A model generated the notes under the pieces. That model saw only the letters and a list, made by a program, of their open reading frames with translations. It did no database searches and was not told where the DNA came from. A stretch of DNA of 64,000 bases, from NCBI GenBank assembly GCA_049975205.1, contig JBNGDL010000007.1, positions 36,952 to 100,951 on the forward strand. Direction: 5' to 3'. Below are positions 12,935-40,497 of this stretch, piece after piece. The translations under genes were made by a program, and so were the position numbers. Numbering within the stretch: position 1 is the stretch's first letter; every line of letters starts with the position of its first letter. Source of the stretch: Anaerolineae bacterium (lineage in GTDB: Bacteria > Chloroflexota > Anaerolineae > B4-G1 > SLSP01).

Positions 12935-13016
12935 ACGGATAGAGAGAATGTCGAAGATGTGGGCCGGCCACGCTGGCCCAAACAATGACTCTTCGGGAGA
13001 TGCAGAGGAGGAAACT

Positions 13017-14504: not shown

Positions 14505-14686
14505 ATATCGGAAGTCTCTGAGTCAAACGAAGCTGCCTCGATCTGAACGAGCAGCGCACGGCGCGGTTGTCCCAGGCCCCGGGGATCCGATCCCTGGTCG
14601 CTGGGGCTTGGGCAGCCGTGTGAAGCCGGGCGCTTACGCATCCGGTCACTAGAGGAGCTTGCGTCGTCAGTTGCTCGCCACCGAGG

Positions 14687-20001: not shown

Positions 20002-20066
20002 ACGCTCCTCTTCCAATGTCGAGGCGCTGAACGGACCAGCGCCTCGTTCGCCGTCCACACGGCTAG

Positions 20067-20094
20067 AGTGTATGGTTAGCTGGAAAGGTGTCAA
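20067..20094 (-). promoter_or_regulatory. sigma70-type promoter for the 18907-20001 gene
   Basis: Minus strand: TTGACA (20094-20089), 16 bp, TACACT (20072-20067). About 60 nt upstream of the ATG at 20001. Confidence 0.45.
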
Positions 20095-21660: not shown

Positions 21661-22478
21661 AACGTGTAGCCGTAGCGGGGAGCTTCGACGATCTACGATC
21701 CTCGCATGTCCGCTTCCTCCACGAAGCGTCGCGCCATGGAGAGCTCTGGGTCTGGCTATGGTCGGACGCTGTCGCTGCGGCGGTCGATGGGAGGCCTCCG
21801 AAGTTCCCAGAGCCTGAGCGACGGTACATGCTCGAAGCTATCCGCTATGTTGATCGGCTCGTGCCGGTCGTTCAGCAGGCCGACCCCGATGCCTTGCCAC
21901 AGGTAGACACCTGGGAGCCTGATATATGGATGGTACCTCACGCTGAGGATAGCGTCGCGAAGCGAGCCTTCTGTGCCAGTGCGGGGATTGAGTATGTCGT
22001 TGTTCCAGACGACCGGCTGGTGGGCTTCCCTGTGCCCGCTGTCAAGCGGTGGGAGCGGCCTACACCGCGGAAAAAGGTGATCGTGACGGGCTGTTATGAC
22101 TGGCTTCACTCTGGTCATGTTCGGTTCTTCGAGGAGGCGGCGGAGCTAGGTGACGTATACGTCGCCGTTGGTAACGATGAGAGCGTCCGCCATCTGAAAG
22201 AGGAAGGACATCCGCTGCTCGGAGAAGCTGAGCGCCTCTACATGGTGCAGTCCATCCGCTATGTCACCCAGGCAGTCCTCACTAAAGGGATTGGCTGGAT
22301 GGATGCAGCGCCGAATGTCGCCGAGATCCGCCCGGATATCTATGTCGTCAATGAGGACGGCGACAAGCCGGAAAAGCGCGCCTTCTGTGCCGAACGCGGC
22401 CTCGAGTACGTCGTGCTGAAGCGGAAACCCAAGGAAGGGCTGTCCCCCAGGTCGAGCACCCGGTTGCGGGGCTTCTGA
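21657..22478 (+). CDS. Tandem cytidylyltransferase-like (CTP_transf_like) two-domain nucleotidyltransferase
   Basis: 273 aa. Domain 1 reads VAVAGSFDDLRSSHVRFLHEA (HxGH degenerated to RSSH). Domain 2 reads VIVTGCYDWLHSGHVRFFEEAAELG (intact HSGH). ATGA overlap with the fucosidase stop. Confidence 0.7.
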   Translation: MKRVAVAGSFDDLRSSHVRFLHEASRHGELWVWLWSDAVAAAVDGRPPKFPEPERRYMLEAIRYVDRLVPVVQQADPDALPQVDTWEPDIWMVPHAEDSVAKRAFCASAGIEYVVVPDDRLVGFPVPAVKRWERPTPRKKVIVTGCYDWLHSGHVRFFEEAAELGDVYVAVGNDESVRHLKEEGHPLLGEAERLYMVQSIRYVTQAVLTKGIGWMDAAPNVAEIRPDIYVVNEDGDKPEKRAFCAERGLEYVVLKRKPKEGLSPRSSTRLRGF

Positions 22479-22491
22479 AGTCGTATATCAT
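22464..22491 (+). promoter_or_regulatory. Candidate promoter at the head of the STK/FHA/PP2C cluster
   Basis: TTGCGG (22464-22469), 16 bp, TATCAT (22486-22491). Overlaps the 3' end of the upstream gene. Weak -35. Confidence 0.25.
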
Positions 22492-22644
22492 AGGGTACCG
22501 TCTTCCCGGAGTTCCTTCGCCCCGACGACCCGCGGCTCACGTCGGCTCCGCTGTGACACTCAGGGAGATCGGTGATCGCGTGGCCGAAACAGGGTGCTCA
22601 GAGGCACATCAAGGCACCGCAACTCGAAAGCAAGGTGCGAGATC

Positions 22645-24243
22645 GTGGCGACGGAACGACCTGCGTCTCGTCTGCATCCGCTGTCTGCCGGCACCCTCCA
22701 TGAGCATTATCAGATACTGGAGGGATGGGAGCTGGCGGAATCGGCCTACTATGATGCGGTAGACCTCATCTGCACGCAATCTGAGTGCGGAACGCGTCAT
22801 GGCTCCGTACCAGGAGATGGGCTTTGCCTTCGCTGCCGGACACCCCTTGAGACGGTGCTGATCCACGAACGGGGTCCTATTCCGGGAGATCCGCTTTCCG
22901 CTGAGAAAATCGACCTGCTGTTGCGGCTGGGACAGGCGGGCCACCCGCATGTGCTTACCCAACGTGAAATTCTCTCGTCGCCGCGAGCTACTTGGGCTGT
23001 TGGGGTGCACCCGGGTCACTGGGGTGTCCTGGTTCGCGGGCGTCGTCCCCGGAGCTCGGAGGACGCTGTGGGCATCGTGGCCCAGGTGGCTAAGGCCATG
23101 ACCTATTTGCACCAGCAAGGCCTGGCCTTGGCGGGGCCAGAGCCCTCAGATTGGGAGGCGACGGTAGAGAAGGTGATCACGCTTGGGGGCGCGGGTGCTG
23201 TGAAGCTGGCTGACCTGAGTGGATGCACCGTGCTGCGCGGGGCGTCGCGATCACAGCAGATCGCCGGTGACGTAGCTTTCCTGGGCCGCCTGTTGTTGTA
23301 CCTGACATCAGATGTGGAAGGCATACCCTCACATCCCTCGCTGGCAGCCCCTGCGCTGTGCCCCTACGTCGCGCAGGCTCTGCAGGGGGCGTATGCTACC
23401 CCAATGGCCCTTTTGAACGATCTCACCTCGACGCCGGCACCGGCTTTGACGGCGCGACCGCTGACCCCGAACCACGGTCAGGCCTCAGATCCGGGCCGGA
23501 AGCACAGCCACAACGAGGATGCTGTCGTCACCTTTACCTACAACAAGGAGCTTCAGGGGCGCTCCGTGCCCATCGGCTTCTACTTGGTGGCGGACGGCAT
23601 GGGAGGCCATGCGGCCGGCGACGTTGCGAGCCGGACGGTCAACGAGATTGTGACAGAGTGGGTCCTGAGGACGAAGGTCTTGCCAGACCTTGCGGGCAGG
23701 ACACGCCTGCTGGGCAGCGACGGTCCGGCGGAGGAGCTGCTGACACAAGCGGTCAAGGCCGCAAACGCGGCCCTGGTTCGACAGGCCAAGGCTTCAGGGA
23801 GCGATCTGGGATCGACGGTGACCGCCGCGTTGATCCTCGGCAACTGCGCTACGATCGTGAATGTGGGTGACAGCCGCACCTACCTACTGCGCGATGGGGT
23901 TCTGAAGCAGATTACCGAGGACCATTCTCTCGTTGCCAGGCTGGTCGATGCGCAGATCATAGAGCCCGATCAAGTGCGCAGCCATCCCCAGCGCAACCAG
24001 ATCTATCGAAGCCTAGGCCATCACGAGGAAGTCGCGGTTGACACCTTCGACCTTGTCCTCCGGCGCCACGATCGCCTGATTCTCTGTTCTGACGGATTGT
24101 GGGAGATGGTCCCGGACGCGCGGATTCAGCAGATCGTTGAGGAGTCCCGAAGCCCACAGCAGGCCTGCTATGCCCTCGTCGCGACAGCCAATGAGGCCGG
24201 TGGCGATGACAACATCTCGGTGGTTATTGTGGCTATGGAGTAG
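22645..24243 (+). CDS. Zinc-ribbon pseudokinase fused to PP2C-family Ser/Thr phosphatase
   Basis: ORF opens at 22594 (GTG). The GTG at 22645 has AAGGTG 7 nt upstream. The N-terminal kinase-like fold lacks a G-loop and has a CxxxC...CxxC insert (CTQSEC...CLRC). The catalytic loop is replaced by LALAGPEPSDW. The C-terminal PP2C is intact: GRKHSHNEDAVV, ADGMGGHAAGDVAS, VGDSRTYLL, CSDGLWEMV, GGDDNISVVIV. Confidence 0.75.
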   Translation: MATERPASRLHPLSAGTLHEHYQILEGWELAESAYYDAVDLICTQSECGTRHGSVPGDGLCLRCRTPLETVLIHERGPIPGDPLSAEKIDLLLRLGQAGHPHVLTQREILSSPRATWAVGVHPGHWGVLVRGRRPRSSEDAVGIVAQVAKAMTYLHQQGLALAGPEPSDWEATVEKVITLGGAGAVKLADLSGCTVLRGASRSQQIAGDVAFLGRLLLYLTSDVEGIPSHPSLAAPALCPYVAQALQGAYATPMALLNDLTSTPAPALTARPLTPNHGQASDPGRKHSHNEDAVVTFTYNKELQGRSVPIGFYLVADGMGGHAAGDVASRTVNEIVTEWVLRTKVLPDLAGRTRLLGSDGPAEELLTQAVKAANAALVRQAKASGSDLGSTVTAALILGNCATIVNVGDSRTYLLRDGVLKQITEDHSLVARLVDAQIIEPDQVRSHPQRNQIYRSLGHHEEVAVDTFDLVLRRHDRLILCSDGLWEMVPDARIQQIVEESRSPQQACYALVATANEAGGDDNISVVIVAME

Positions 24244-24330
24244 GGGCGGAGGTTGCGCACCGCGGCGTAAGGCGATGCGGCGCCCATGGAAGATCGTGAC
24301 CAGGTAGTCTAGGGGGAGGAGGGGCGGCCC

Positions 24331-26208
24331 ATGCTGCAACCTAATACGCAACTTCAAAACCGGTATCTCATCCGCCGTCGCATTGGGGGAGGCGGGATGG
24401 GGACTGTGTACATCGCCGAAGACATGCGGCTACAGGGACGTCAGTGTGCCGTGAAGGAGATGTCACCTAGCGCCCTTGCGCCACAGGATCGAGAGTGGTC
24501 CATCGAGGCCTTCCGGCAGGAGGCTCAGATGCTCGCCCAGCTTCGCCATCCCGGCTTGACCGCCGTGACCGACTTCTTTGGGGAGGGTGGCAACTGGTAC
24601 CTCGTCATGGATTACGTCGAGGGCAAGACGCTGGCCACGAAGCTCTCGGAGGCACCAGAGGGGCGTTTCCCGGTCCAGGAGGCTCTGCGCATCGTTCGAC
24701 AGCTCTGTGACGTCCTCGAGTATCTTCACAACCAGCCATCACAGGTCATATTCCGCGATCTGAAGCCTGGGAATGTCATGGTCACCGCTGAGGGCCAGGT
24801 GAAGCTGATCGACTTCGGCATCGCGCGCTTCTTTAAGCCGGGCAAACAAGCCGACACCGCGCTACTCGGAACGCCGGGATATGCTGCGCCGGAGCAATAT
24901 GGTGGTCTGGGTCAGAGTGGGCCACAGACGGATATCTACAGCCTCGGCGTGCTCCTGTGTCACATGGTGACAGGCTTTGATCCCGTCAGTGCCATGAGTC
25001 CGTTCCCTATCCCTGACCCGACCTCGTTGATGCCGGGTATACCCCCGCGCATTGCCGCCACTATCGTTCGAGCGACCCAGTTGCGCCCGGAGCTCCGGTA
25101 TCGTAGTATCGCCGAGATGCGCGACGACCTCTTCCCACCCTCGTTCGTTCCCTATAAACCGCCTACGGAACGCCAGAGGACGCAGGTCATGCAGCCTTCC
25201 GCGCCGAGTGAGGCCGGTTCTGATCGGAAGCGGTTGCGGATGGCGCTGCTAGCGGGAGGGGCAGGTATCGCGTTGCTCGGCATCTGTGTTGGCCTTGGGG
25301 TGTTCGTCGTCTGGCCTTATCTCAGGCCCGACGCGACGGTCACGCCGACCGTGACGCCGACCCAAGCCGCTGCCACAGCCACATTCGAGGCCACGGCCAC
25401 GGTGGGTGCCACCGCCTCAGAGGAGTCGGTAACGCCAACAGAAACGCCGGCTGAGGTCGACACGGATACACCGCCGCCTCCCGTGGTAAAGGTTGATCAG
25501 GATAGCCTTGGGCTCTCGGTTCAGGGGAGGGCGCTGGCCGTCACCACGATCGGCTACGAGGACGGCGCCGACATTGTCGTGGTCGGGAGCATTCAGGGGG
25601 ATCAAGCTGGCACGCGAGACTTGGTCCAGGCACTGATCGACCACTACCGCTCGAATGAGGGCGACATACCGATGGGTGTAATGTACCACTTCGTGCCTTC
25701 CATCAACCCTGATGGCCTTACCTTGAACTCCCGCTACAACGCGCGCGACGTAGACCTCAACCGCAATTGGGGCTCTAGTGATTGGCTGCGCGACGCCGCC
25801 GTGCCGGGATACCCTGAGGGGAAGCCCGACGCGGGAGGCGCGGCACCCTTCTCGGAGCCCGAGACCCAGGCGCTGAGGGACTATCTGCTCTCTCTAAGGT
25901 CGTCTTCCGATAGGCTGCGCGTGATGATCCTACACTCCTCAGTGCGTCGTGACAAAGGTGAGGTCTATCCGGGCGGAGCCACGGCGCTGGACGCAGCACA
26001 GTCCTACGCCAACGTGACCGGCTATGACGTCGAGTATGCCTGGGCGGAGTATGTGACCTCCGGCGAGGCTGTGACCTGGTGTGAGGAGCAGTCTATCGTG
26101 TCCATTGATGTCGTCATTCCCGGATCGCAGACGCCGAGCACGAAGGTCATTGGAGATCGGACGCTGCTGCAGATCACGCTTGATGCCGTCAGGACCCTCG
26201 GTCAGTAA
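24331..26208 (+). CDS. Ser/Thr protein kinase - TM - extracellular M14 carboxypeptidase-like domain (zinc ligands substituted)
   Basis: 625 aa. Kinase motifs GGGGMGTVYIAED, CAVKEM, FRDLKPGNVMV, IDFGIARFF, GTPGYAAPEQ. One TM (LLAGGAGIALLGICVGLGVFVVW), then a T/P-rich linker. M14 blocks are VVVGSIQGDQAGT (in place of HxxE), SINPDGL, DVDLNRNWG and FSEPETQAL. Confidence 0.8.
   Translation: MLQPNTQLQNRYLIRRRIGGGGMGTVYIAEDMRLQGRQCAVKEMSPSALAPQDREWSIEAFRQEAQMLAQLRHPGLTAVTDFFGEGGNWYLVMDYVEGKTLATKLSEAPEGRFPVQEALRIVRQLCDVLEYLHNQPSQVIFRDLKPGNVMVTAEGQVKLIDFGIARFFKPGKQADTALLGTPGYAAPEQYGGLGQSGPQTDIYSLGVLLCHMVTGFDPVSAMSPFPIPDPTSLMPGIPPRIAATIVRATQLRPELRYRSIAEMRDDLFPPSFVPYKPPTERQRTQVMQPSAPSEAGSDRKRLRMALLAGGAGIALLGICVGLGVFVVWPYLRPDATVTPTVTPTQAAATATFEATATVGATASEESVTPTETPAEVDTDTPPPPVVKVDQDSLGLSVQGRALAVTTIGYEDGADIVVVGSIQGDQAGTRDLVQALIDHYRSNEGDIPMGVMYHFVPSINPDGLTLNSRYNARDVDLNRNWGSSDWLRDAAVPGYPEGKPDAGGAAPFSEPETQALRDYLLSLRSSSDRLRVMILHSSVRRDKGEVYPGGATALDAAQSYANVTGYDVEYAWAEYVTSGEAVTWCEEQSIVSIDVVIPGSQTPSTKVIGDRTLLQITLDAVRTLGQ
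25330..25482 (+). repeat. Low-complexity Thr/Pro/Ala-rich extracellular linker-coding tract (kinase)
   Basis: Encodes DATVTPTVTPTQAAATATFEATATVGATASEESVTPTETPAEVDTDTPPPP, between the TM helix and the M14-like domain. Confidence 0.6.
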
Positions 26209-26219
26209 GGAGCGAGTCT

Positions 26220-27092
26220 ATGCGATGCCCTAACTGCGGCCAAGAGAACCGCGTGGGAGCGAGGTTCTGCGGGCGGTGCGGTCAGCCCCTATCGACTAAG
26301 CCGCCTCTGGAACTCACGGAGGCTGCTTCTCGTTGCCCAGTCTGCAACAGCATCCTCAAACCGGATGCGCGCTTCTGCCCGCAGTGCGGCACCGCTATCT
26401 CCGCTCCTCGAGATGGGGTTCCAGCGCCGACGCCGCCGGCCCACACCGTGAGGGCCGGTGAGAGAGCTCTGCCGACGGTCACGCCCGCACCAGCGATCGT
26501 GAGCCCTCAAGCTGCGCCCGAGGCCAGTCGGGTGGAGGAACAGTCACGAGCTCGCGTGCGGCGCCGCCCTGCCTGGCTCGTCGGGGTCGTGATGGCGCTG
26601 CTCTCAGGGGCTGTGTTTTTCTGCCTCGTGATGGGGCTCGCTCTTCTGCCAGCCTTTGGGAGGTCGGTGCCGCCGTCGCCGGAGGTCGATCCCTCGCAAG
26701 CCGATTTGACGATCCTGGTGAGGGAGGCGTACATCAGCGATATGCTCGCCCAGGCGCTGCCGGAGGGGGTACAGGGGGATGCTGTTGTGGATGTGCAGCC
26801 CGGAAACAAGCTCGTCACGACGATCGGCTTCGATCTCCTGTTCATCGACCTTGAGGTGATTGTCCACGCCGGGATCGGGGTTGAGGGTGGTGAGATCCAG
26901 GTCTGGGTGGACCGCGTGGAGACCGGCGGACACGACATCCTTGAACTGCTCAACGTTAATCAGGTCGATCTCGGGCAGAACATCACAGGCGCGATCCAAC
27001 AGGGACTCGAAGATGAACTGGGCCCAGGTTCGCGGTTGCTGACGATTGTCACAGACGACACCAACGTGATCCTGACGGCGCGATGGGAGTAG
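26220..27092 (+). CDS. Double zinc-ribbon - TM - extracytoplasmic domain protein
   Basis: 290 aa, AAGGAG RBS. MRCPNCGQENRVGARFCGRCG and CPVCNSILKPDARFCPQCG. Pro-rich linker, TM (WLVGVVMALLSGAVFFCLVMGLALL) and an ecto-domain of about 150 aa, possibly DUF2993/LmeA-like (weak). Confidence 0.6.
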   Translation: MRCPNCGQENRVGARFCGRCGQPLSTKPPLELTEAASRCPVCNSILKPDARFCPQCGTAISAPRDGVPAPTPPAHTVRAGERALPTVTPAPAIVSPQAAPEASRVEEQSRARVRRRPAWLVGVVMALLSGAVFFCLVMGLALLPAFGRSVPPSPEVDPSQADLTILVREAYISDMLAQALPEGVQGDAVVDVQPGNKLVTTIGFDLLFIDLEVIVHAGIGVEGGEIQVWVDRVETGGHDILELLNVNQVDLGQNITGAIQQGLEDELGPGSRLLTIVTDDTNVILTARWE

Positions 27093-27098
27093 ACGGCG

Positions 27099-27680
27099 AT
27101 GACGCAGATTAGGGGTGGAGGACTGCTTCGGAATCGGTGGTTTGTGGCGTTGGTTGGGGCGGTCCTGGGGTTCTTCGTCGGCGTCGCCCTGGCGGCTGGT
27201 GTTCTGCTGCTGCTGCATGGCGACCCAGAGTCCTTACCAGGCACGTCGCCCGCAGCGGTCTACGATATTCAGGCCGTGGTTGAGGAGCGCTATATCAACC
27301 GCATCATGGTTCAGAGCGCCAACGAGATGGCGGGCCCAGTTTCCCTCTCGGCGGGCAAGATGGACATTCGACCGGGCGGGGTAGCTGACTTCGTCGTGCG
27401 CATTGATGTTGGTCCGCTTCAGCCAGTCTTCGAGGGTAGGGTAGGGTTTAGGGCCACGGAAGACGGTAGCAGCATCGAGGTAGTGCTGCTGGATGCCCGA
27501 TTCGGGAGGCTGCAGCTGAACCGGCTCGTGCCCGATGGCGTGTTGGACGACATCAACGCAGACATCAAGCGGCTCTTGGTCGACAAGATTGGGTCGCAGG
27601 GTCTCTACGTCCTGGACGTGCAGAGTGATGAGACAACGCTCATTCTCCATCTGGGCAGGGAGCCACAGGCTATCCCTTGA
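27099..27680 (+). CDS. Single-pass membrane protein, ecto-domain distantly paralogous to that of the preceding gene
   Basis: 193 aa. N-terminal TM (WFVALVGAVLGFFVGVALAAGVLLLL). The following domain repeats the pattern of the upstream ecto-domain (EERYINRIM... vs REAYISDML...; C-terminal ...TTLILHLG vs ...TNVILTARW). Confidence 0.5.
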   Translation: MTQIRGGGLLRNRWFVALVGAVLGFFVGVALAAGVLLLLHGDPESLPGTSPAAVYDIQAVVEERYINRIMVQSANEMAGPVSLSAGKMDIRPGGVADFVVRIDVGPLQPVFEGRVGFRATEDGSSIEVVLLDARFGRLQLNRLVPDGVLDDINADIKRLLVDKIGSQGLYVLDVQSDETTLILHLGREPQAIP

Positions 27681-27717
27681 CGGGACAAGGTTTTGACAGG
27701 AATGAGGAACGACCGTC

Positions 27718-30528: not shown

Positions 30529-30553
30529 GGACAGACGCAACGGGAGAAATCGG

Positions 30554-31189
30554 ATGATGCGACGTCGATGGGCGTGGAGTGTCGCACTGATCAGTGTGCT
30601 GTTGTCCACGGGGTGCGAGGCCGAACCTGTGACCCCCGCGACGCCCCGTCCCACGCTAACGGCAACGCCAACGGCGACAGAAAGGGCAACGGTCACCCCG
30701 ACACCTTCGCCGACAGCGGTGCCTACAGTGACGCCTGCGCCCCGGGCGACCTCGACGGCAAAGCCGACATCCACTGCCACGGCGACGTCAACGCCCCGAC
30801 CGAGGGCGCCCTCGCCGGAGTCCTTGGCCACGCAGTATCCTCAGCTTGCCCCAATCTTGAACAATACAGAGGTGAGCACGGTCTACAAGGAGCTCGCTGT
30901 GGCCTGGGAGGCGCAAGGACAGCAAGGCGTGCTCGCCGTGGCGCGGGACCGGGGCCTCTTGACGCCTGAGGGGGACATTCGTGCGACGCTTGTACTGGAC
31001 ACGGAGGATTCAACAGCTACGGTTGCGCGGTTGCAGTCATTGGGGATAGAGGTGCTGGGGACCCAGGGCGAGCGGGTCCAGATCGCCATACCCCAGGGCC
31101 TCCTGATGGCGGGTGCGAATGACCCCGGTAGCGCCCTGAATCAGCTGAGCGGCCTGGAGCACGTCGTAGGTGTCGAACCGCCGGGCTGA
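30554..31189 (+). CDS. Lipoprotein with Thr/Pro-rich linker and a domain paralogous to the pro-like N-domain of the downstream S8 protease
   Basis: ATG at 30554 (MMRRRWAWSVALISVLLSTGC, lipobox-like STGC); the ORF extends to 30464 but that would overlap the ABC gene. The C-terminal 120 aa align with residues of about 60-185 of the 31615-33969 product (YPQLA, TVYKE, RGLLTP.G, TLVLDT, G.EV, QL..L.HV). Confidence 0.65.
   Translation: MMRRRWAWSVALISVLLSTGCEAEPVTPATPRPTLTATPTATERATVTPTPSPTAVPTVTPAPRATSTAKPTSTATATSTPRPRAPSPESLATQYPQLAPILNNTEVSTVYKELAVAWEAQGQQGVLAVARDRGLLTPEGDIRATLVLDTEDSTATVARLQSLGIEVLGTQGERVQIAIPQGLLMAGANDPGSALNQLSGLEHVVGVEPPG
30629..30815 (+). repeat. Low-complexity Thr/Pro/Ala-rich linker-coding tract (lipoprotein)
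   Basis: Encodes TPATPRPTLTATPTATERATVTPTPSPTAVPTVTPAPRATSTAKPTSTATATSTPRPRAPSP. The ACG/CCG/GCG-rich nucleotide repeats also generate a spurious G/V/A-rich antisense ORF. Confidence 0.6.
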
Positions 31190-31209
31190 GCTGTGCTGAG
31201 GAGGAGGCG

Positions 31210-31305
31210 ATGACGCTGGCACCGGGAACGCTCCTGCAGCAACGCTACCGCATCATGTCGTTGTTGGGGGTGATCCCGAGTTCTCTTGTCCCGATATCGC
31301 TCTGA
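31210..31305 (+). pseudogene. 31-codon stub of a Ser/Thr kinase N-terminus (truncated before the glycine-rich loop)
   Basis: Strong RBS GAGGAGG at 31201-31207, then ATG. MTLAPGTLLQQRYRIMSLLG matches the start of the intact kinase (MLQPNTQLQNRYLIRRRIG). The frame then diverges (VIPSSLVPISL) and stops at 31303-31305. No kinase core follows in any frame. Confidence 0.5.
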
Positions 31306-31614
31306 GCCAGTCCCCCCCGACGCCGGTCAGCGGATTCGGGAAGATATGGTGCACAGAATCGAATTCCGTCAGGGCCTGGGGGACGCAACCGAGGTCGAAC
31401 ACGGCTTTGGGGCGACTCTCCAGATCTTTGAGCAAGGGGCCGTGTTTCGTACGGACACCGGCACGACCTACGTTCTTCGCGACAACGGTACCCGGATAAG
31501 TCGGCAATGTCAGGGCTCGGTCTGGACCAGGTTGCAGCGGTATTGGGCTTGGTGGGAAGTGGTTGTTCTTTTCATCTGAGTATTGAGGGTTGTGCATAGC
31601 CAGAGGCTGAAGAT

Positions 31615-33969: not shown

Positions 33970-34011
33970 TGTGATCCTCAGGGAGTCTTCGGGACGGTAA
34001 GCCTGAAGGAT

Positions 34012-34040
34012 TTGTGCTTTGCTGAGATCGATACTATCGT
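34012..34040 (+). promoter_or_regulatory. Candidate internal promoter upstream of the second pseudokinase-PP2C gene
   Basis: TTGTGC (34012-34017), 17 bp, TATCGT (34035-34040), in a locally GC-poorer 170-bp gap. Confidence 0.25.
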
Positions 34041-34138
34041 AGGTGGGTAACATGGTCTGCAAGGGGGATCCTTGGAACAGGTAACGGGCAACGGGTTCTT
34101 CGTTTCGCTTTCTCAGCGCAACCTTACATATCCCTTTT

Positions 34139-35887
34139 TTGGTGCTCTTGGGGCTCTTGTTTGTCTTGACCACCGTCGTCTTGGCAAGGCGACTTCGCAG
34201 ACGACGTGTCTCTTCGAAGACGACGCCGGAGGCAACCTCTGCAGCCGCGACACGCCAGGGTGGGGGGACCAAGCAGCTAGCGGGGACGCCTGAAGCGTCG
34301 CATCCCGATCTAAGCGGCGGCTTTTCAGCACTGGCTGAAGGTACTGTGCTTAACAACCGCTACGTGATACGTGAGGTCCGTGGATCAAGCGGCAGCCACG
34401 CGGTCTACCTGGCTGAGGATCTCTACCCGGTCAAGATGTGTCCGGCATGCCGTGGCGTGGCATCAGACGCGGATGAGATTCGGTGCACATATTGTGGGGC
34501 CGATCTGTCCGAGATCTCCCCAGCTCAGCTCAGGTATCTCGTGCAGGAGCGGGACGATCCTGCGGCGTTCAGCTCTGAAGGCCAGTTACTCCAGCTTGAC
34601 CTGAGGCATCCGGGCCTGTTGCTGCCGGTTGCGGTCTTCGTGGAAGCTCCTCACGGTCCCAAGCGGGCTTATCGTGTTATGCCCGAGTTCTCCCCGCCGC
34701 TTGTGAAGACCGTGCCCGGTCCACGTGACTTGGCCCAGACGCTCTCGTGGGGTGTCTCGTTGGCGAAGGCTCTCGCTTATCTGCATCAGCACGATGTTGC
34801 CCTTGGTTCTGTGGATATCGACCACGTCTCGGTTGATGGCGACAGAGCATGGTGGTCGGGGCTGACCCGCGTCACGATCTTGTCCGCTGAGGAGCGTGCC
34901 TCTATCCGTGAGGCGCACGCCGTCGATGTGCAGAAGCTGGCGACCTTGTTGGTACAGCTGGGGACAGGAAGGGCTAACGCGGCTCTGCCCGAGAGCTGGC
35001 CTGATGCTCTGAACCAGTTGATCACCAAGGCACACCGTGAGCCTGCGAAGGTGAGCGCTGCGGAGTTTGCTGTTATGCTGGAGCACCTGTTGGAACAAGT
35101 GCGGGAGCCTAAGCGCGTGACGCTGGTGGTCGGGCAGTGCACGGATGTGGGTTCCATTCGCTCTGTCAATGAGGATACTCTTCTCTCGGTCGACCTCGGG
35201 GCGATCCATCGCCTGCGAGATCAGGCGGCGGGGCTTTTTCTCGTCGCCGATGGTATGGGTGGGCACGACGCAGGGGATGTGGCCAGCCAGTTGACGGCTC
35301 GGACAATTGGGGAGCTGACAACAGAGGAAGGGACCCGCCCCATTTCCTCCCGTCAGCTGTTCTCCGACCCGGCAGGGTGGCTGTTGACTGCGGTCCGGCA
35401 GGCCAACCAGGCGGTATATGAGGAGCGGATGGCTGCGAAATCTGACATGGGCACGACGCTCGTCGCGGCGCTCGTGATGGGTGCGCGGGCGACAATTGCT
35501 AACGTGGGAGACAGCCGCTGTTATCTGCTCAGCAACCGTGGCATCACCCAGGTCACGGTGGACCACTCGCTGGTGGAGCGGCTGGTGGCGACTGGTCAGA
35601 TCACGCGTGAGGAGGCGGCTGTGCATCCTCAGCGTCACGTCATCTACCGCGTGATCGGCGATAGGCCGGAGGTGGAGATCGATCTCTTCGAGCAACCGAT
35701 GCAGGTCGACGAAGCGTTGTTGCTCTGCTCCGACGGGTTGAGCGGCATGGTGTCTGACGAGACGATCTGGCGGATCTGGATGGCTGCAGCCTCTCCCCAA
35801 GATGCTTGCATCCGCTTGGTCGCGGCTGCGAATAGGGCCGGCGGCGAGGATAACATCACCGCCGTGATCGTTCAAGTGCGGACCTGA
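34139..35887 (+). CDS. Zinc-ribbon pseudokinase fused to PP2C phosphatase (paralog of 22645-24243), possible N-terminal membrane anchor
   Basis: 582 aa from a TTG at 34139; alternative starts are GTG 34142 and GTG 34346. Kinase-like LNNRYVIREV..AVYLAED, insert MCPACRG...RCTYCG, alphaC-like EGQLLQLDLRHPGL. The catalytic loop is replaced by ALGSVDIDHV and there is no DFG. The PP2C is intact: SIRSVNEDTLL, ADGMGGHDAGDVAS, VGDSRCYLL, CSDGLSGMV, GGEDNITAVIV. Confidence 0.75.
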   Translation: MVLLGLLFVLTTVVLARRLRRRRVSSKTTPEATSAAATRQGGGTKQLAGTPEASHPDLSGGFSALAEGTVLNNRYVIREVRGSSGSHAVYLAEDLYPVKMCPACRGVASDADEIRCTYCGADLSEISPAQLRYLVQERDDPAAFSSEGQLLQLDLRHPGLLLPVAVFVEAPHGPKRAYRVMPEFSPPLVKTVPGPRDLAQTLSWGVSLAKALAYLHQHDVALGSVDIDHVSVDGDRAWWSGLTRVTILSAEERASIREAHAVDVQKLATLLVQLGTGRANAALPESWPDALNQLITKAHREPAKVSAAEFAVMLEHLLEQVREPKRVTLVVGQCTDVGSIRSVNEDTLLSVDLGAIHRLRDQAAGLFLVADGMGGHDAGDVASQLTARTIGELTTEEGTRPISSRQLFSDPAGWLLTAVRQANQAVYEERMAAKSDMGTTLVAALVMGARATIANVGDSRCYLLSNRGITQVTVDHSLVERLVATGQITREEAAVHPQRHVIYRVIGDRPEVEIDLFEQPMQVDEALLLCSDGLSGMVSDETIWRIWMAAASPQDACIRLVAAANRAGGEDNITAVIVQVRT

Positions 35888-35930
35888 CCGCCGGTGCTGA
35901 ATCAAGACAGAAGACATGGAGGCAGTTGAG

Positions 35931-37913
35931 ATGCGCATACGGCGTGTGCTGTCGACCTTCATCTGTCTCGCATCCCTGCTGTCGGCGATGCCGACGGCAG
36001 CACAGGAGGGCGTGCCCGAGCCTCCGGTCGTGGACATCCTTGGGACGCCGGATACCCGCTCCCAGCCCCCAAACGCTCATCTCTATGTGTCCGTCGTAGA
36101 CCGGCTCACAGGCCGTGCGTTTCTCGATCTGGAGCCAGCGAATTTCGCGGCCCAGGTCTCTGAGGTAGACGTTGAGACCGCAGTCGAGATAGACACGACC
36201 GGACTGGCTGTGGTCATGGTGATCGACCGTGGCGGGATAGCCCAGCGGGGTGATCCCAGGATCGGTCGGAGCGTTGACCTTGCATCCGCGTTGCTCGAGA
36301 TGCTGACGGTGGACGGGACTGCCACGGCGGATATGGTGGCGCTCATCGGCATCCGCGGCGAGGAACAAGGCGGACTCACGCCAGTCATCAACTTCACAGA
36401 CTACGATCCGAACGTAATCAGCAACGCCTTTGATGGGCTGCGTACAGAGGTTGTGAACGAAACGACGCCCCTTTATGACGGGCTCGACAGAGCGATAGCG
36501 TGGATCACCGATAACCCCGATCCTCAGATACGCGAGAAACTGGTACATCGACGGCGGATCATCCTGGTCTTCTCCGACGGGATAGATCGGGACTTCAGTG
36601 ACGAGTCCCACGAGACTCTGATCGTCAATCAAGCTGCGGAGAACGATATCCTCATCTATGCTGTCCAAATGAGTGACCGGGGTCGGACGGGTGATTCCAT
36701 AAGCCTAAGTGCCATGGCCACACAGACTCAGGGAGCGCTGTTCGTGCACAGTCCGGAGAGTCACGAGGAGGTCCTCGCCCGTCTGCAGGATATCACGACC
36801 CAACGGGAGGCCTACCGCCTGACCTTTCCTCTGATCCGGCCTCAAGGCCTGTACCAGGTGGAGATTCAGGTGCTTGATACGCCAGGTGGGTCAGCTTCGG
36901 ATGCTGAGAGCATCACGTCTCACCTGGAGAGGCCAGGTATCGCGTGGGTCGCACCTCCGGAGCTTCAGATTGTCGTGCCCTATTCCGAGACAGCGCTGGG
37001 GTTCCTGCCCACATCGATCCCGTTGAGCGTCCAGATGAGTTTCAAGGATGGCGCTTCGCGAGAGCCGGAGCAGGTCTCGTACTTCGCGAACGAGCAGCGC
37101 ATTGGTCTTACAAGTGCCGGTCCGGACTACGCTTTTGAATGGGACGTCGCGGATCTCGAGACGCCGGCGACCGAGCCGGTCACGCGAACCTTCACCCTGA
37201 TTGCTCGCGCGACCGATCCCTATCTCGAGGAGCCTATTGCGACGGAGCCGCTGGACATCCAGATTACGTGGGAGCAGAAAGAGGAGACGCTGAAGACGGT
37301 CACAGAGGATGTCGCCAGCAGCGTGGCGCTGAACTGGTGGGTCCTCCCACTCTTCGGCGTGCTGGCAGTGGGTATTGTCGTGCTCGCCGTGCTGCTGATT
37401 CGGACCCGAGGTCAGGTGGCGAAGCAGGTCGTGAAGGGTACCACGGCTGTCGTGAGAGGGGTCACACAACGGTTAGGCGCTGGCGGTGGGTTGCCCGCTG
37501 CACGGGGGAAGCTTGTCGTGACGCGAGGACCTCGCACGGGGACTGAGTTCCGTCTGGCAACGAGCTTGGTGCGGGTCGGGCGAGATCCTGAGTACAGCGA
37601 CTTCGCACTGCACGACCAATACGTGTCCAACCCTCACTTCTCCGTGATCGAGGAGGGAGGGCAGTTCTATATCCGGGATGAGGAGAGTACCAACCAGACC
37701 CGTCTTAATGGCGCAGTCGTCCCTGCGAATCAGCGGATCGTTCTGCCCCCGGATGCCGTCATCGATGCAGGCCAGACGCGTCTCCAGTTTCGTCGGTTGG
37801 GTGGCGAGACGCGGCTCATCAGCGCTCGCGCACAGAAGACGGAGCGAGGCAGCTCGGGGCAAGACGAGGCCAATGCGCCAACGCAGCGAGCAGGCCCAGG
37901 TTTCCGCCCGTAG
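35931..37913 (+). CDS. Secreted vWA-like domain - TM - cytoplasmic FHA domain protein
   Basis: ATG at 35931 has GGAGG 8 nt upstream; the ORF opens at 35916. Signal peptide MRIRRVLSTFICLASLLSAMPTAAQ. vWA-like strands VVMVIDRGGIA (MIDAS DxSxS not conserved) and IILVFSDGIDRDF. TM is WWVLPLFGVLAVGIVVLAVLLI. FHA is LVRVGRDPEYSDFALHDQYVSNPHFSV...ESTNQTRLNG. Confidence 0.75.
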   Translation: MRIRRVLSTFICLASLLSAMPTAAQEGVPEPPVVDILGTPDTRSQPPNAHLYVSVVDRLTGRAFLDLEPANFAAQVSEVDVETAVEIDTTGLAVVMVIDRGGIAQRGDPRIGRSVDLASALLEMLTVDGTATADMVALIGIRGEEQGGLTPVINFTDYDPNVISNAFDGLRTEVVNETTPLYDGLDRAIAWITDNPDPQIREKLVHRRRIILVFSDGIDRDFSDESHETLIVNQAAENDILIYAVQMSDRGRTGDSISLSAMATQTQGALFVHSPESHEEVLARLQDITTQREAYRLTFPLIRPQGLYQVEIQVLDTPGGSASDAESITSHLERPGIAWVAPPELQIVVPYSETALGFLPTSIPLSVQMSFKDGASREPEQVSYFANEQRIGLTSAGPDYAFEWDVADLETPATEPVTRTFTLIARATDPYLEEPIATEPLDIQITWEQKEETLKTVTEDVASSVALNWWVLPLFGVLAVGIVVLAVLLIRTRGQVAKQVVKGTTAVVRGVTQRLGAGGGLPAARGKLVVTRGPRTGTEFRLATSLVRVGRDPEYSDFALHDQYVSNPHFSVIEEGGQFYIRDEESTNQTRLNGAVVPANQRIVLPPDAVIDAGQTRLQFRRLGGETRLISARAQKTERGSSGQDEANAPTQRAGPGFRP

Positions 37914-38006
37914 TAGCGAGGATGCCGTAGCCCTGTCGGCGTTGACAAGGATCGCGCCATTTAGGTGTGAAAGGGATCTGCGGTTGAATTCAGAGGAGTT
38001 GATTCT

Positions 38007-38939
38007 ATGCCAATCTGTCCGAATTGTGGAGCACAACAGCCGGAGGGAGCTACCTTCTGCGACGAGTGTGGCGCGGCTTTAAGACGCCCCGCGGTCTCCT
38101 ATCCTGCGCCCTCGTCCAAAGACCAGGGTCGAACCGTTGTAGGCTCCAGCATGGCCGCAGGGCCGCGCCTCTGCCCGGTCTGTGGTGCGCGTAACGCTTC
38201 ACAAGACCCTTTCTGCACGAACTGCGGGGCCTCGCTCAGCGAGGAGCCCGCTCCCGCCCAGCGCGGACCCTGTGCGATGGATGGGGTGACGGTCATAGCA
38301 CCCGCTGGGGCAGGGGGGCGACCGGAGAAGCTCGGTCCTACTCCCGGTGCGGGTTCTGTTCAGGGTGGTTTGGTCTGTGGTCAGTGCGGTGCGTTGCTGG
38401 AGCCCGACAGTGCCTTCTGTGATATGTGTGGGGCGCCGGTGAGTCGTGTGTCGCCGCCCTCCGGTGACGAGACCGCGCTGTCGTCCCCTCCCGCCTCGGA
38501 TCAGGCTCCAGTCTACGAACCGACCGTCGCATCACAGGAGCGGGGATGGCAGGCGTCGGCGGGAGGAGCGCTGCAAGCGCCAACGCCCTCCGACGACGCG
38601 CTACGCCCGAAGCCTCAGGGTGCGCTGGTGGTGCGCGGGAGCAACGTCACGCTCGATCTTGTGTCAGGGACGCTGGTATGGGTGATCGGTCGCGAGGATC
38701 CACTGAGTGGTATCTTCCCGGACATCGATCTTACAGACCACGGGGGGGACGAGGGTGGTGTCTCCCGCAAGCACGCACGGATTCAGGTACAGGGCCAGCG
38801 GTTCTACGTCGAGGACCTGAATAGCACGAACCATACTTACCTGAACCGCGAACTGCTGACGCCGGGATACACCTATCCGCTCCGGGATGGCGATGAGTTG
38901 TGCTTTGGACGCGTGAAAGTGATCTTCAGGTCTTCCTAG
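38007..38939 (+). CDS. Triple zinc-ribbon - FHA domain protein
   Basis: 310 aa, GAGGAG RBS. CPNCGAQQPEGATFCDECG, CPVCGARNASQDPFCTNCG and CGQCGALLEPDSAFCDMCG. C-terminal FHA is VWVIGRED...GGVSRKHARIQV...DLNSTNHTYLN. Confidence 0.8.
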   Translation: MPICPNCGAQQPEGATFCDECGAALRRPAVSYPAPSSKDQGRTVVGSSMAAGPRLCPVCGARNASQDPFCTNCGASLSEEPAPAQRGPCAMDGVTVIAPAGAGGRPEKLGPTPGAGSVQGGLVCGQCGALLEPDSAFCDMCGAPVSRVSPPSGDETALSSPPASDQAPVYEPTVASQERGWQASAGGALQAPTPSDDALRPKPQGALVVRGSNVTLDLVSGTLVWVIGREDPLSGIFPDIDLTDHGGDEGGVSRKHARIQVQGQRFYVEDLNSTNHTYLNRELLTPGYTYPLRDGDELCFGRVKVIFRSS

Positions 38940-40028
38940 ATGTTCAGACTCAGGTCGATGGAGAGCTACGTAGCACACGTCTCCCGTGAGATGGATGACG
39001 CCCTTCGCCGGGCGCGGTCCGGCGGCGCAGGGGGCGCGAGAGCCCGCTTTGACATAGCCACAGACCGGATGATCATCTTCGGAGACCTTCATCGTGGCGC
39101 CCGGAATGCAGCGGATGACTTCCGCCAGAATGAACGTGCGTACTGCGCTGCCCTTGCGTACTACTTCAGAATGGGACATCGCCTCGTCGTGCTAGGTGAT
39201 GCTGAGGAGCTGTGGGAGGAGTCGCCTGCGACCATTCTCAGCGAGTACCGGCACACGCTGGAGCTAGAAGCTCAGTTCCACCGCGACGGCCGTTACTGCC
39301 GCGTGTGGGGCAACCACGACGATGAATGGCAGTATGAGCCACGCGTCCGTCTGCTGCTCGATCCAATCTATGGCGGTCGGCCACTGAATATCTACGAGGC
39401 GCTGTTCGTAGATGTCGAGGACGACGGCAACCGGTTAGGCTCCCTGTTTCTGGTCCACGGACACCAGGGCGATACGAAGAGCAGCCAGTGGTCCTGGCTC
39501 TCGCGGCGCGTCATCCGGTATCTTTGGCGCCCCTTCCAGCGCTTCACTGGCGCCTCCGTGAACACGCCAGCAACGAGCTGGGATCTCCGGGATAGGCTGA
39601 ACCAAGCGATGTATGCCTGGTCTGTGAAGGAGAAGAGTTTACTGCTGGTTGCTTCCCATACGCACGAGCCAGTTTTCAAGTCCCGTTCGCACGAGGCACA
39701 GATCAAAGAGCACCTTGCGGCGCTTGAGGCTGAGGCTGGAAAGGTTCCAAGTCGTGAACAGCGAGAGGAGATGGCCCGCCTGCAGGCCCGGCTAGAGTGG
39801 GTCAGGATGAAGACACAGGAGTCCGGGGGGCAAAGAAACGGCATCCACTTCCAGCTGCCGTGCTACTTCAACCCGGGTTGTTGCTGCTATGACGATGGCG
39901 ATATCACGGGGATCGAACTCGCAGAGGGTCAGATTCGCCTGATCCGTTGGCCCGATGAAGACAATGAGCCCTGTCCTCATATCCTCGCTGCGGATTCCCT
40001 GAGGGAGGTCTTTAGGGACTGCTCCTGA
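38940..40028 (+). CDS. Calcineurin-like metallophosphoesterase (possible PPP-type protein phosphatase)
   Basis: 362 aa. Motifs IIFGDLHRG, VVLGDAEELWE, WGNHDDEW, LVHGHQGD, ASHTHEP. The ATG directly abuts the TAG of the upstream FHA gene (TAGATG). Confidence 0.7.
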   Translation: MFRLRSMESYVAHVSREMDDALRRARSGGAGGARARFDIATDRMIIFGDLHRGARNAADDFRQNERAYCAALAYYFRMGHRLVVLGDAEELWEESPATILSEYRHTLELEAQFHRDGRYCRVWGNHDDEWQYEPRVRLLLDPIYGGRPLNIYEALFVDVEDDGNRLGSLFLVHGHQGDTKSSQWSWLSRRVIRYLWRPFQRFTGASVNTPATSWDLRDRLNQAMYAWSVKEKSLLLVASHTHEPVFKSRSHEAQIKEHLAALEAEAGKVPSREQREEMARLQARLEWVRMKTQESGGQRNGIHFQLPCYFNPGCCCYDDGDITGIELAEGQIRLIRWPDEDNEPCPHILAADSLREVFRDCS

Positions 40029-40137: not shown

Positions 40138-40215
40138 TGGTGCCCCCAACGGGATTCGAACCCATGTACCAGGCTTGAAAGGCCTGTGTCCTAGACCAGG
40201 CTAGACGATGGGGGC
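40138..40215 (-). tRNA. tRNA-Glu (anticodon UUC), CCA encoded
   Basis: Reverse complement GCCCCCATCGTCTAGCCTGGTCTAGGACACAGGCCTTTCAAGCCTGGTACATGGGTTCGAATCCCGTTGGGGGCACCA. It folds with a 7-bp acceptor stem, a D-arm typical of tRNA-Glu, anticodon loop CUUUCAA (UUC), T-loop TTCGAAT and a 3' CCA. Confidence 0.9.
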
Positions 40216-40308: not shown

Positions 40309-40497
40309 GCCGTGGTACTCGTTGAGGTGTGCATTTTTAATTGAATGTGGATTACTCCGCGGCCCGGGTGGTGTGAAGACCGGGCTGAGCGCTCTCAAGG
40401 ACTCTGTATCTCCCCGCCTGTATGGTCAGGTGCGGTTGTCCTGGTAAGAATCAACAGGGGCGCGGCGGACACTACGGTCATTATTGAAGGTGAGTCT

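Follow-up and report, generated by a model that had tools for sequence, protein, structure and literature searches.

A membrane-linked Ser/Thr phospho-signalling neighbourhood of Anaerolineae, probably built from two recurrent modules

In Pseudomonas aeruginosa, the threonine-phosphorylation pathway of the type VI secretion system (T6SS) consists of PpkA, in which a kinase is joined through a transmembrane segment to a vWA domain, the PP2C phosphatase PppA, and Fha1. In actinobacteria, the fhaA-fhaB-pstP-rodA-pbpA-pknA-pknB cluster holds RodA/FtsW and penicillin-binding protein (PBP) genes between the phosphatase and the kinases, and the pair formed by MviN and FhaA offers an example in bacteria of a pseudokinase domain to which an FHA protein docks in a phospho-dependent manner. 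The fusion of kinase and vWA in PpkA has been documented (PMC1262709), and in Mycobacterium tuberculosis the kinase PknF positively regulates the neighbouring FHA-FHA-ABC exporter Rv1747 through contacts between phosphothreonine (pThr) and FHA domains, the exporter being linked to the levels of phosphatidylinositol mannosides (PMC3138270, PMC8339232, PMC5549992). Sulfolobus has the zinc-finger-FHA protein ArnA, the vWA protein ArnB, the kinases ArnC and ArnD, and PP2A (PMC6509490, PMC7472852). The DRA0331-DRA0334 operon of Deinococcus radiodurans encodes a vWA protein, a transmembrane Ser/Thr kinase, an FHA protein and an FHA-PP2C protein (bioRxiv 10.64898/2026.01.23.701218), and the combination of kinase, PP2C, FHA and vWA was noted as an actinobacterial theme by Kaur et al. 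(PMC7159879). Here we describe a gene cluster that combines these four domains, at positions 22594-40028 of a 64,000-nucleotide stretch of an Anaerolineae contig (JBNGDL010000007.1), which as a whole is called the window below.

The cluster comprises 11 intact plus-strand genes (g01-g06 and g08-g12) and one kinase pseudogene, and not the thirteen genes counted in the first-pass annotation of this stretch. On balance, we take it to be a lineage-conserved (Anaerolineae/Thermoflexia) neighbourhood for phospho-Ser/Thr signalling at the membrane, composed of two recurrent modules and not forming one indivisible switch; it probably controls cell-envelope functions. Module I (g01-g05) would contain a receptor kinase, a pseudokinase::PP2C fusion, two bitopic proteins and an FHA-FHA-ABC exporter. 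Module II (g06-g12) would contain an S8 protease with a lipoprotein, the core pair g09-g10, a zinc-ribbon-FHA adaptor and an LpxH-like metallophosphoesterase. Products were assigned with Pfam, NCBIfam and a motif scan for every gene, and topology was taken from a hydropathy scan and from the structural model of g10. The kinase, PP2C, FHA, S8, vWA, ABC and Metallophos domains that had been listed from the letters alone were found, each in its place, by Pfam and the motif scan.

Conservation of gene order carries this reading. With g10 as seed, we examined 46 loci from GTDB species representatives, together with metagenome contexts, and annotated them by BLAST against the window proteins. An orthologue of g09 lies directly upstream of g10 in 35 of the 40 Anaerolineae/Thermoflexia loci whose upstream sequence reaches 700 bp or more, and slightly farther away in two more; an FHA gene stands directly 5' of g09 in 19 of the 24 loci with at least 900 bp upstream. 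Downstream of g10, two variants occur. In variant A, found in the window and in nine loci of its closest relatives, g10 is followed by g11-g12. In variant B (24 loci) it is followed by a short kinase gene and/or a PP2C gene, in many cases with g11 and another kinase next, and in three of these loci, from more distant relatives (L025, L027, L040), FHA-FHA-ABC genes follow within at most 10 kb of g10. Locus L010 holds eight genes, g03-g04-g06-S8-g09-g10-g11-g12, with gaps of 50 bp or less, and L007 has a similar order to which g02 and, upstream, the cytidylyltransferase gene of the window are added. The order g06-kinase-...-S8-FHA-g09-g10-g11-g12 is shared by L001, L005 and L008, L011 reads g05-g06-(zinc-ribbon-transmembrane protein)-S8-...-g09-g10, and L050 carries a double-zinc-ribbon kinase, g01 (63% identity), g02 (64%), an M14-LysM gene, two kinases, g03 (54%), g04 (62%) and g05 (72%). 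Overlapping pieces of L050, L011, L008 and L010 jointly span the whole gene order of the window, with flanks that vary between loci. Gene-neighbourhood comparison, which had been proposed as a check, therefore finds the set syntenic in related genomes. With protein identities of 24-62%, the related loci are not near-clonal.

The first-pass annotation had gone further and taken all the genes for an operon-like machine, in which a kinase, three phosphatases and four readers would make up a single phosphothreonine switch gating export, surface proteolysis and adhesion together. This is possible but in our judgement unlikely. The shared strand fits it, as do the short junctions, most of which measure 6-93 bp, the stop codon of g11 that abuts the start codon of g12, the complete order rebuilt from overlapping relatives and the tight eight-gene run of L010. 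However, g05 and g01 are absent from L007 and L010, and L002 has the core only (FHA-g09-g10-kinase-PP2C) with unrelated genes upstream, which points to separable modules that occur apart or recombined. In one metagenome-assembled genome (MAG), that of L050 and L028, the g01-g05 part and the S8-g10 part are on separate contigs, a split that could be a mere assembly break. The claim of short gaps holds for most junctions but not for g06/g08 (425 bp, holding the pseudogene) and g08/g09 (169 bp), each of which contains a terminator-like hairpin (31264-31279 after g06; 33986-34009 after g08) of a kind no commoner here than in shuffled sequence. The plus-strand run also takes in the flanking genes from 20269 to 46397, far past the cluster, and thus co-orientation alone is no evidence for an operon. 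In relatives, this neighbourhood includes two to five kinases, so that the single writer of the window reflects gene loss, and of the three proposed erasers g12 is no recognisable protein phosphatase, as detailed below. What the system gates (export, proteolysis, adhesion) is something we infer. A weaker version of the core, with a g10-like gene, a kinase and a PP2C gene, is present in the Caldilineaceae locus L047.

The cluster is bounded upstream by the cytidylyltransferase gene (21657-22478) and downstream by a tRNA-Glu(TTC) gene (40138-40215, minus strand), the sole match of an Rfam scan. Its start had been placed at 22464, but that frame is closed until 22576 and the first start codon is a GTG at 22594. 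G+C content is about 0.61 and uniform over the cluster and its flanks, and the window resembles a Chloroflexota (Anaerolineae) chromosome, close homologues coming without exception from Anaerolineae or Thermoflexia MAGs. When the cluster's own domains were used as tblastn queries against the 64-kb window, kinase, PP2C, FHA and double-zinc-ribbon matches were confined to 22.5-40 kb, with none in the other 46 kb; this concentration is not due to chance. A random juxtaposition of unrelated signalling genes in a kinase-rich genome might be proposed, given that Anaerolineae loci are rich in kinase, FHA and PP2C genes and that genes of the g12 family occur elsewhere in unrelated contexts. It is hardly credible in view of orthologue-level synteny over some 40 loci with variable flanks and of the lack of such domains in the remaining 46 kb.

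The two pseudokinase::PP2C fusions of the first-pass annotation were confirmed in g01 (22594-24243, plus strand), whose product is cytoplasmic and has an internal zinc ribbon, and in g09 (34139-35887, plus strand; start codon uncertain). Their C-terminal halves match Pfam PP2C (2e-16 and 1e-14, respectively) and NCBIfam Stp1_PP2C, where g01 scores 225 bits (6.9e-67), just under the cut-off of 230, and g09 scores 247 bits (1.3e-73), above it. Both PP2C halves keep every metal-binding motif, in g01 as DGMGG, CSDGL and GDDNIS. The N-terminal domain of the g09 family aligns with the local Hanks kinases (hhalign probability 99.1%, E 1e-18), and its profile matches PknB (8e-4) and EGFR (1e-5) in the PDB, as well as PknG and PDK1; the N-terminal domain of g01 can be aligned with this kinase-like family. 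In g09 the beta3 Lys is replaced by Gln, the HRD Asp by Ser, the Asn by His and the DFG Asp by Ser; in the g01 family Lys is changed to His and HRD is lost, while the Asp of 'DLS' is retained. A zinc ribbon with four invariant Cys is inserted between beta2 and beta3 of the kinase-like domains. From these substitutions, the N-terminal halves of g01 and g09 are classed as pseudokinases. The g01 family has more than 1378 homologues, mostly in Anaerolineae/Chloroflexota and usually 3' of a kinase gene. No description of a pseudokinase::PP2C family was found in the open-access literature; in the PP2C-kinase fusions reported earlier, the kinase is active and the two domains stand in the reverse order (PMC1262709).

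Both fusion genes differ from their relatives at the N-terminus. Orthologues of g01 have an N-terminal zinc ribbon and a linker, both of which are absent from the product of g01 itself. In g09, the first ~60 amino acids (a transmembrane helix and a linker; 34139-34330) are homologous to a transmembrane-FHA protein of L001 (E 1e-4), and in relatives a small lipoprotein-transmembrane-FHA gene (7395-8171 in L001) precedes g09. The FHA domain of that small gene and the N-terminal zinc ribbon of g09 itself are missing here, which, together with the origin of the g09 N-terminus, indicates that a deletion fused the two genes. The independently assembled L055 (Logan SRR24635347), with 99% identity over 7.6 kb and the same upstream gene order, contains a stop at codon 123 of g01 (window 22960-22962; L055 5176-5178) that cuts off most of the pseudokinase half; this may be either real erosion or an assembly error. 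Beside the g01 orthologue, L051 (1-12023) and L050 (8056-17966) hold runs of three to five receptor kinase genes, whose ectodomains differ (PD40/beta-propeller, FGE-sulfatase, M14 and double zinc ribbon). Such runs suggest a sensor array converging on one pseudokinase::PP2C.

The signature protein of the conserved core is g10 (35916-37913, plus strand), which consists of a signal peptide, a beta-sandwich, a vWA domain, two further beta-sandwiches, a transmembrane helix, a disordered linker and an FHA domain. Its family numbers 180 representatives at E<=1e-30, most of them full-length. Pfam recognises the FHA domain (5e-10) and, below the cut-off, VWA_2 (1.2e-4). The AlphaFold2 model, with a predicted local distance difference test (pLDDT) value of 80.6, retrieves the bacterial vWA structure 4fx5, SpaC, ITIH1 and the FHA domains of GarA/OdhI in Foldseek, the FHA part superposing on GarA/OdhI with a target template-modelling (TM) score of ~0.9; at the level of the model, the vWA fold is thus confirmed. 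The first motif of the metal-ion-dependent adhesion site reads DRGGI instead of DxSxS and is invariant in the family, and the Thr and second Asp are conserved; metal binding by this vWA domain is therefore uncertain. T-x-x-L/I is a classic FHA ligand pattern. In the linker between the transmembrane helix and the FHA domain, where pLDDT falls below 50, lies the sequence GVTQRL (residues 515-520; window 37458-37475), of which the Thr and the Leu at +3 are invariant in all 16 aligned members, at 35-63% identity. The Thr of this site (T517) is accordingly a candidate phospho-acceptor and FHA ligand.

Downstream of g10, most loci hold an orthologue of g11 (38007-38939, plus strand), which encodes a soluble protein of three zinc ribbons, a linker and an FHA domain (Zn_Ribbon_1 2e-19 in three stretches; FHA 9e-17). 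With six CxxC motifs and the FHA motifs present, g11 is by its domain make-up an adaptor-type phospho-threonine reader. The next gene, g12 (38940-40028, plus strand), directly follows g11 in all nine of the closest loci with enough downstream sequence, and encodes a calcineurin-like metallophosphoesterase. It matches Metallophos with 23.4 bits against a cut-off of 21.5, its five motifs are intact and invariant in orthologues, and its AlphaFold2 model has a pLDDT of 85. It had been counted as a third eraser, but the idea of a PPP-family Ser/Thr phosphatase was rejected, because its motifs DLHRG, LGDAEELW and GNHD differ from the GDxHG, GDxVDRG and GNHE of PPP enzymes and the 50 best Foldseek matches in the PDB do not include a PPP protein phosphatase. 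By target-normalised TM score, the best of these is LpxH with lipid X (6ph9; 0.58, at only 14% identity). Purple acid phosphatase and SbcD match with E-values similar to that of LpxH, and SbcD/Mre11 and Vps29 are also among the structures matched, while neither the single sequence nor a profile finds a sequence match in the PDB. Going by the modelled fold, g12 is perhaps nearest to LpxH, and a role as a small-molecule or lipid pyrophosphatase/phosphodiesterase is at least as likely as one on proteins. Its family has 904 matches, many labelled LpxH/COG2908 in IMG, and occurs in unrelated contexts as well, such as beside lytic transglycosylase and Usp genes (L053) or after a hydrogenase/complex-I-like operon (L054).

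The one intact kinase gene of the cluster, g02 (24331-26208, plus strand), belongs to Module I. Its product matches Pkinase (7e-44) and, beyond a transmembrane helix at residues 309-327, Peptidase_M14 (1.4e-15). With a complete set of Hanks motifs (GGGGMGTV, AVKE, FRDLKPGN, DFG, APE), it is predicted to be an active Hanks-type Ser/Thr kinase. The ectodomain (window 25480-26205) has MpaA (5hxd; 8e-7) as its best PDB match, yet IQGDQ stands where HxxE is expected and a Val takes the place of the catalytic Glu, with the NRN substrate-binding motif and the third His kept; having lost the first His and Glu among the zinc ligands of M14 metallocarboxypeptidases, it is classed as a pseudo-enzyme, and it is probably a sensor for a peptide or muropeptide. 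The orthologous kinase of L050 shows the same M14 losses, whereas all four residues (His, Glu, His, Glu) persist in the adjacent M14-LysM paralogue (13940-15253). The kinase orthologue of L007 has a beta-propeller-like ectodomain with WSPDG repeats in place of M14, indicating that sensor domains are swapped on a constant kinase.

Two bitopic proteins follow. The product of g03 (26220-27092, plus strand) has a double zinc ribbon (DZR 6e-14), a transmembrane helix at residues 120-138 and an ectodomain of ~150 amino acids. In its orthologues, the ectodomain matches the Pfam family LmeA (PF11209) below the cut-off of 27.3 bits, in L050 with 22.5 bits (1.3e-4) and in L007 with 15 bits (0.027), the alignments (L050 18390-18869; L007 4680-5183) running end to end over profile positions 89-216. 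The g03 ectodomain may thus be LmeA-like and bind phospholipid, and these sub-threshold matches, only a lead, hint at a lipid cargo. The product of g04 (27099-27680, plus strand) has a transmembrane helix at residues 21-39 and a ~150-amino-acid ectodomain without assigned family, no Pfam or NCBIfam match being found. Its orthologues (58-66% identity) lie directly 3' of g03 in L007, L010 and L050, and g04 is always paired with g03; BLASTP detects no homology between the two ectodomains.

Module I ends with the exporter gene g05 (27718-30528, plus strand), which encodes, in one chain, a double zinc ribbon, two FHA domains, an ABC ATPase and an ABC-2 membrane domain (FHA 1e-40 in two stretches, ABC_tran 1e-29, ABC2_membrane 1e-15, and DZR). 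The Walker A, signature and Walker B motifs are intact, as are the GR/SxxH/NGT motifs of both FHA domains, and the best NCBIfam match, TIGR00955, is of the ABCG/White type. Judging from these domains, g05 is an exporter half-transporter of Rv1747-type architecture. Orthologues are 72% identical in L050 and 71% in L011. The linker between the two FHA domains measures ~20 amino acids and has a single Thr, conserved only in close orthologues. With two FHA domains in g05 and one each in g10 and g11, the earlier count of four in three proteins is correct; all four are matched by Pfam FHA and keep the GR, SxxH and N-x-T residues.

Module II opens with g06 (30554-31189, plus strand), a probable lipoprotein whose start, MMRRRW...LLSTGC, reads as a signal followed by Cys. 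Its C-terminal 125 amino acids are 42% identical over 126 amino acids to the pre-catalytic domain of g08 (31615-32200; BLASTP E 6e-27), and neither copy of this domain matches a Pfam family (e.g. Inhibitor_I9). Orthologues of g06 adjoin S8 or kinase genes in L001, L005, L007, L008, L010 and L011. On the strength of the shared domain, g06 could be a tethered inhibitor, chaperone or decoy for g08. Between these two genes lies the remnant of a second kinase, suspected before and now confirmed at 31210-31492 (plus strand) as a receptor Ser/Thr kinase pseudogene. In a tblastn comparison with a 580-amino-acid kinase of L029, residues ~17-46 of the latter align at 31210-31269, 504-531 at 31269-31352 and 536-577 at 31367-31492, so that ~20-30 N-terminal amino acids, from the kinase domain, and ~75 C-terminal ones, from the ectodomain, remain in three frames after an internal deletion of ~455 codons and frameshifts. 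An intact kinase holds this position after g06 in L001, L005 and L008. The open reading frame (ORF) 31286-31579 was rejected as a gene, as it has neither a Pfam match nor a homologue in its own right and overlaps the remnant's C-terminal part.

The protease gene g08 (31615-33969, plus strand) matches Peptidase_S8 (5e-32) and DZR (1.5e-11). Its product is arranged as transmembrane helix, pre-catalytic domain, catalytic domain, transmembrane helix (residues 630-648) and cytoplasmic double zinc ribbon, and the Asp/His/Ser triad is intact within LDLG, HGT and GTSASAP motifs. By these motifs g08 is a membrane S8 subtilase. In L001, a 1.8-Mb ENA contig, the S8 and g11 orthologues (4979-7308 and 12206-13382) each appear as two ORFs, a split that probably stems from indel errors in long reads and does not mark real pseudogenes.

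The best NCBIfam match of the S8 protease is the type VII secretion system (T7SS) mycosin (E 1e-20), and this brings up another explanation, namely that the core regulates a secretion or appendage apparatus, after the model either of T6SS regulation by PpkA/PppA/Fha1 or of a T7SS and its mycosin-like protease, with the vWA protein as a tip or anchor adhesin. The FHA domains also match the Yop-YscD_cpl and T6SS TagH/FHA models, the modelled g10 ectodomain resembles the pilus adhesin SpaC, and kinase, PP2C, FHA and vWA are all found in the T6SS pathway (PpkA being a kinase+vWA fusion; PMC1262709). Even so, we hold this explanation to be quite improbable. The mycosin match reaches 74 bits against a cut-off of 279, by which a mycosin assignment of g08 was rejected, and g10 is held by its own transmembrane helix, with no sortase signal. 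Moreover, the cluster, 23 Pfam-scanned neighbouring ORFs and the called genes of the related loci read contain no FtsK/EssC, ClpV, sheath, baseplate, Ecc or sortase gene, and T6SS structural genes (TssA-M, Hcp, VgrG, ClpV) are likewise absent from the 11 products and from the same ORFs and loci.

An anti-phage or biological-conflict system, of the vWA/kinase type described by Kaur et al. (2020) or based on a defence kinase, was also considered. PADLOC models (PD-T4-6, mad6, mad3 and subtilase) match g02, g05 and g08, Anaerolineae are filamentous, and vWA, inactive kinase and PP2C are themes of conflict systems in multicellular prokaryotes (PMC7159879). The PADLOC matches, however, cover only the generic kinase, ABC and S8 catalytic domains, with nothing specific in g09-g12, and on this ground the defence reading was set aside as very improbable. 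The ABC ATPase is the sole NTPase; the cluster lacks both a partner of the MoxR, STAND or GTPase kind and an effector domain of the nuclease or toxin kind. Placed behind a signal peptide and before a transmembrane helix, the vWA domain is extracytoplasmic. Finally, the G+C content equals that of the flanks, no mobile-element gene was seen, and L007 and L055 share the chromosomal neighbour u2 with the window.

We return to the reading of two modules at the membrane. On the outer side, the predictions place the M14 domain, the ectodomains of g03 and g04, the lipoprotein g06, the protease domain of g08 and the vWA domain along with its beta-sandwiches. Inside they place the kinase domain, both PP2C fusions, g11 and g12, and every FHA domain and zinc ribbon. 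The first-pass annotation had described almost every component as a transmembrane fusion, but g01, g11 and g12 are soluble. Double zinc ribbons occupy the cytoplasmic ends of g03, g05 and g08 and the N-terminus of g11, with mutual identities of 30-50%.

With this arrangement in mind, one may sketch how the parts could work together. The g02 kinase would phosphorylate threonines in disordered cytoplasmic linkers, the T-x-x-L site of g10 being one candidate, and the FHA domains of g05, g10 and g11 would read these marks and thereby bring together or switch on the membrane proteins. Once the juxtamembrane TxxL is phosphorylated, receptors could be bridged or partners recruited by an FHA domain, which might belong to g10 itself (in trans), to g11 or to the small FHA protein now lost. 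The two PP2C domains would erase the marks, targeted to the kinase or its substrates by their dead kinase domains, and the double zinc ribbons might act as common docking handles. At the surface, the dead MpaA-like ectodomain of g02 would report peptide or muropeptide ligands, and the pair of S8 protease and lipoprotein could be an output or a processing enzyme for ectodomains. The M14-LysM paralogue and the neighbouring cell-wall genes (L,D-transpeptidase, two LCP, VanW) fit a cell-wall theme.

Several points weigh against this reading. The mechanism just sketched is wholly inferred. The relatives are all MAGs of one class, and therefore part of the synteny may reflect shared ancestry and not selection. 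A promoter and terminator scan was uninformative, terminator-like sites occurring at the level of shuffled sequence. No LmeA match was obtained for the window copy of g03 (ectodomain 26640-27092) or for the L010 copy, and g12 may be a mere neighbour. In addition, a kinase, an FHA domain and two N-terminal zinc ribbons have disappeared from the window copy, so that 'one writer, four readers' describes a trimmed copy and not the design; given this decay, to which the nonsense codon of g01 in the 99%-identical strain may be added, some of the parts may be non-functional here.

A bolder proposal concerns the triad of a small FHA protein, a zinc-ribbon pseudokinase::PP2C and a receptor composed of signal peptide, vWA, transmembrane helix, TxxL linker and FHA domain. 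According to this speculation, the triad would be an undescribed signalling device of filamentous Chloroflexota that couples an extracellular vWA domain to intracellular pThr reading, in an integrin-like outside-in/inside-out manner. The tethered phosphatase would provide a built-in reset, and the output would be a remodelling of the cell surface or of cell-cell contacts in the filament by the FHA-ABC exporter and the membrane S8 protease. We rate this proposal as rather improbable.

Some further features of the window are recorded here. Cell-wall genes surround the cluster: a PG_binding_4-LysM-YkuD L,D-transpeptidase gene at 14687-16261 (minus strand), tandem LCP paralogues (LytR_cpsA_psr with LytR_C) at 43536-44924 and 44994-46397, and a PG_binding_4-VanW gene at 54669-56483. 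An RNase J gene (40345-42147) lies past the tRNA-Glu gene, just upstream of which is a near-consensus promoter-like site on the minus strand (40257-40230; TTGACA-16-TACGAT with an upstream TG). ORFs at 46458-48299 (613 amino acids) and 18907-20094 (395 amino acids), both on the minus strand, are without a Pfam match at E<=1e-5. The strongest AT skew of the window, -0.269, lies at 58001-60000.

Ser/Thr phospho-signalling is almost unstudied in Chloroflexota, most members of which are uncultured, and the cluster offers a compact, testable set of parts. It draws attention to a large family, of more than 1,300 homologues, in which phosphatases are fused to dead kinase domains, and to a receptor family that joins an extracellular vWA domain to an intracellular FHA domain through a linker with an invariant TxxL. 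A dead murein-peptide amidase in the position of a kinase sensor suggests an alternative to PASTA repeats for cell-wall sensing. No description of the ensemble was found in the open-access literature, in line with the earlier impression that it had not been described.

Among the known systems, PknF/Rv1747 resembles Module I. As compared by architecture, g05 has the two N-terminal FHA domains, the ABC ATPase and the ABC-2/ABCG-like membrane domain of Rv1747 in one chain, and it is encoded near a receptor Hanks kinase, so that by analogy a pThr-dependent regulation of the exporter is likely; a possibly LmeA-like g03 would fit the glycolipid theme proposed for Rv1747. However, g05 has an extra N-terminal double zinc ribbon, and its linker of ~20 amino acids contrasts with the long, disordered linker of Rv1747 with the phospho-sites T152 and T210. 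The g02 kinase, unlike PknF, is encoded three genes upstream of the exporter and has a dead M14 ectodomain, and Module I includes a pseudokinase::PP2C and two bitopic genes. Such a second, phylogenetically distant example of the design could help to tell its general principles from mycobacterial specifics.

Like ours, the actinobacterial cluster groups FHA readers with a PP2C phosphatase and with receptor kinases for the sensing of cell-wall fragments, a role that is probable for the kinase described here. It was correctly set apart from our locus in the first-pass annotation, since no FTSW_RODA_SPOVE or transpeptidase domain is present in the 11 products; RodA/FtsW, PBP and MurJ genes are missing, and the sensor is a dead M14 domain in place of PASTA repeats. 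The pseudokinase is fused here to a phosphatase, and in MviN to a flippase. In the T6SS pathway, as here, a Hanks kinase, a PP2C, an FHA protein and an extracytoplasmic vWA domain are encoded together, with the pThr machinery inside the cell. The vWA domain is fused there to the kinase and here to the FHA reader, PP2C is fused here to a pseudokinase, and T6SS structural genes do not accompany the set.

In the Arn system, the likeness lies in a zinc-ribbon-FHA protein (g11) adjoining a vWA protein (g10), with kinase and phosphatases and a calcineurin-superfamily enzyme in the set. The vWA protein ArnB, however, is cytoplasmic and binds ArnA directly, whereas the vWA domain of g10 is predicted to be extracytoplasmic; g12 is not PPP/PP2A-like, the present system belongs to a bacterium, and its surroundings hold neither archaellum genes nor other known targets. 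The DRA0331-DRA0334 operon likewise groups vWA, kinase, FHA and PP2C, and its phosphatase carries a targeting domain. That domain is an FHA domain, and here it is a zinc-ribbon-bearing pseudokinase; the vWA protein stands alone there, and here vWA lies in a chain of signal peptide, vWA, transmembrane helix and FHA; and the Deinococcus operon is without ABC exporter and S8 protease. The vWA-MoxR and vWA-ternary systems of Kaur et al. (2020) have an obligate NTPase partner, effectors and a cytoplasmic vWA domain, none of which is found here. The cluster is therefore a lineage-specific version of known kinase/PP2C/FHA/vWA signalling and not a wholly new kind of system, and it is set apart from the known quartets by its fusions, the zinc-ribbon pseudokinase::PP2C and the vWA-transmembrane-FHA receptor, and by its outputs, the FHA-ABC exporter and the S8 protease.

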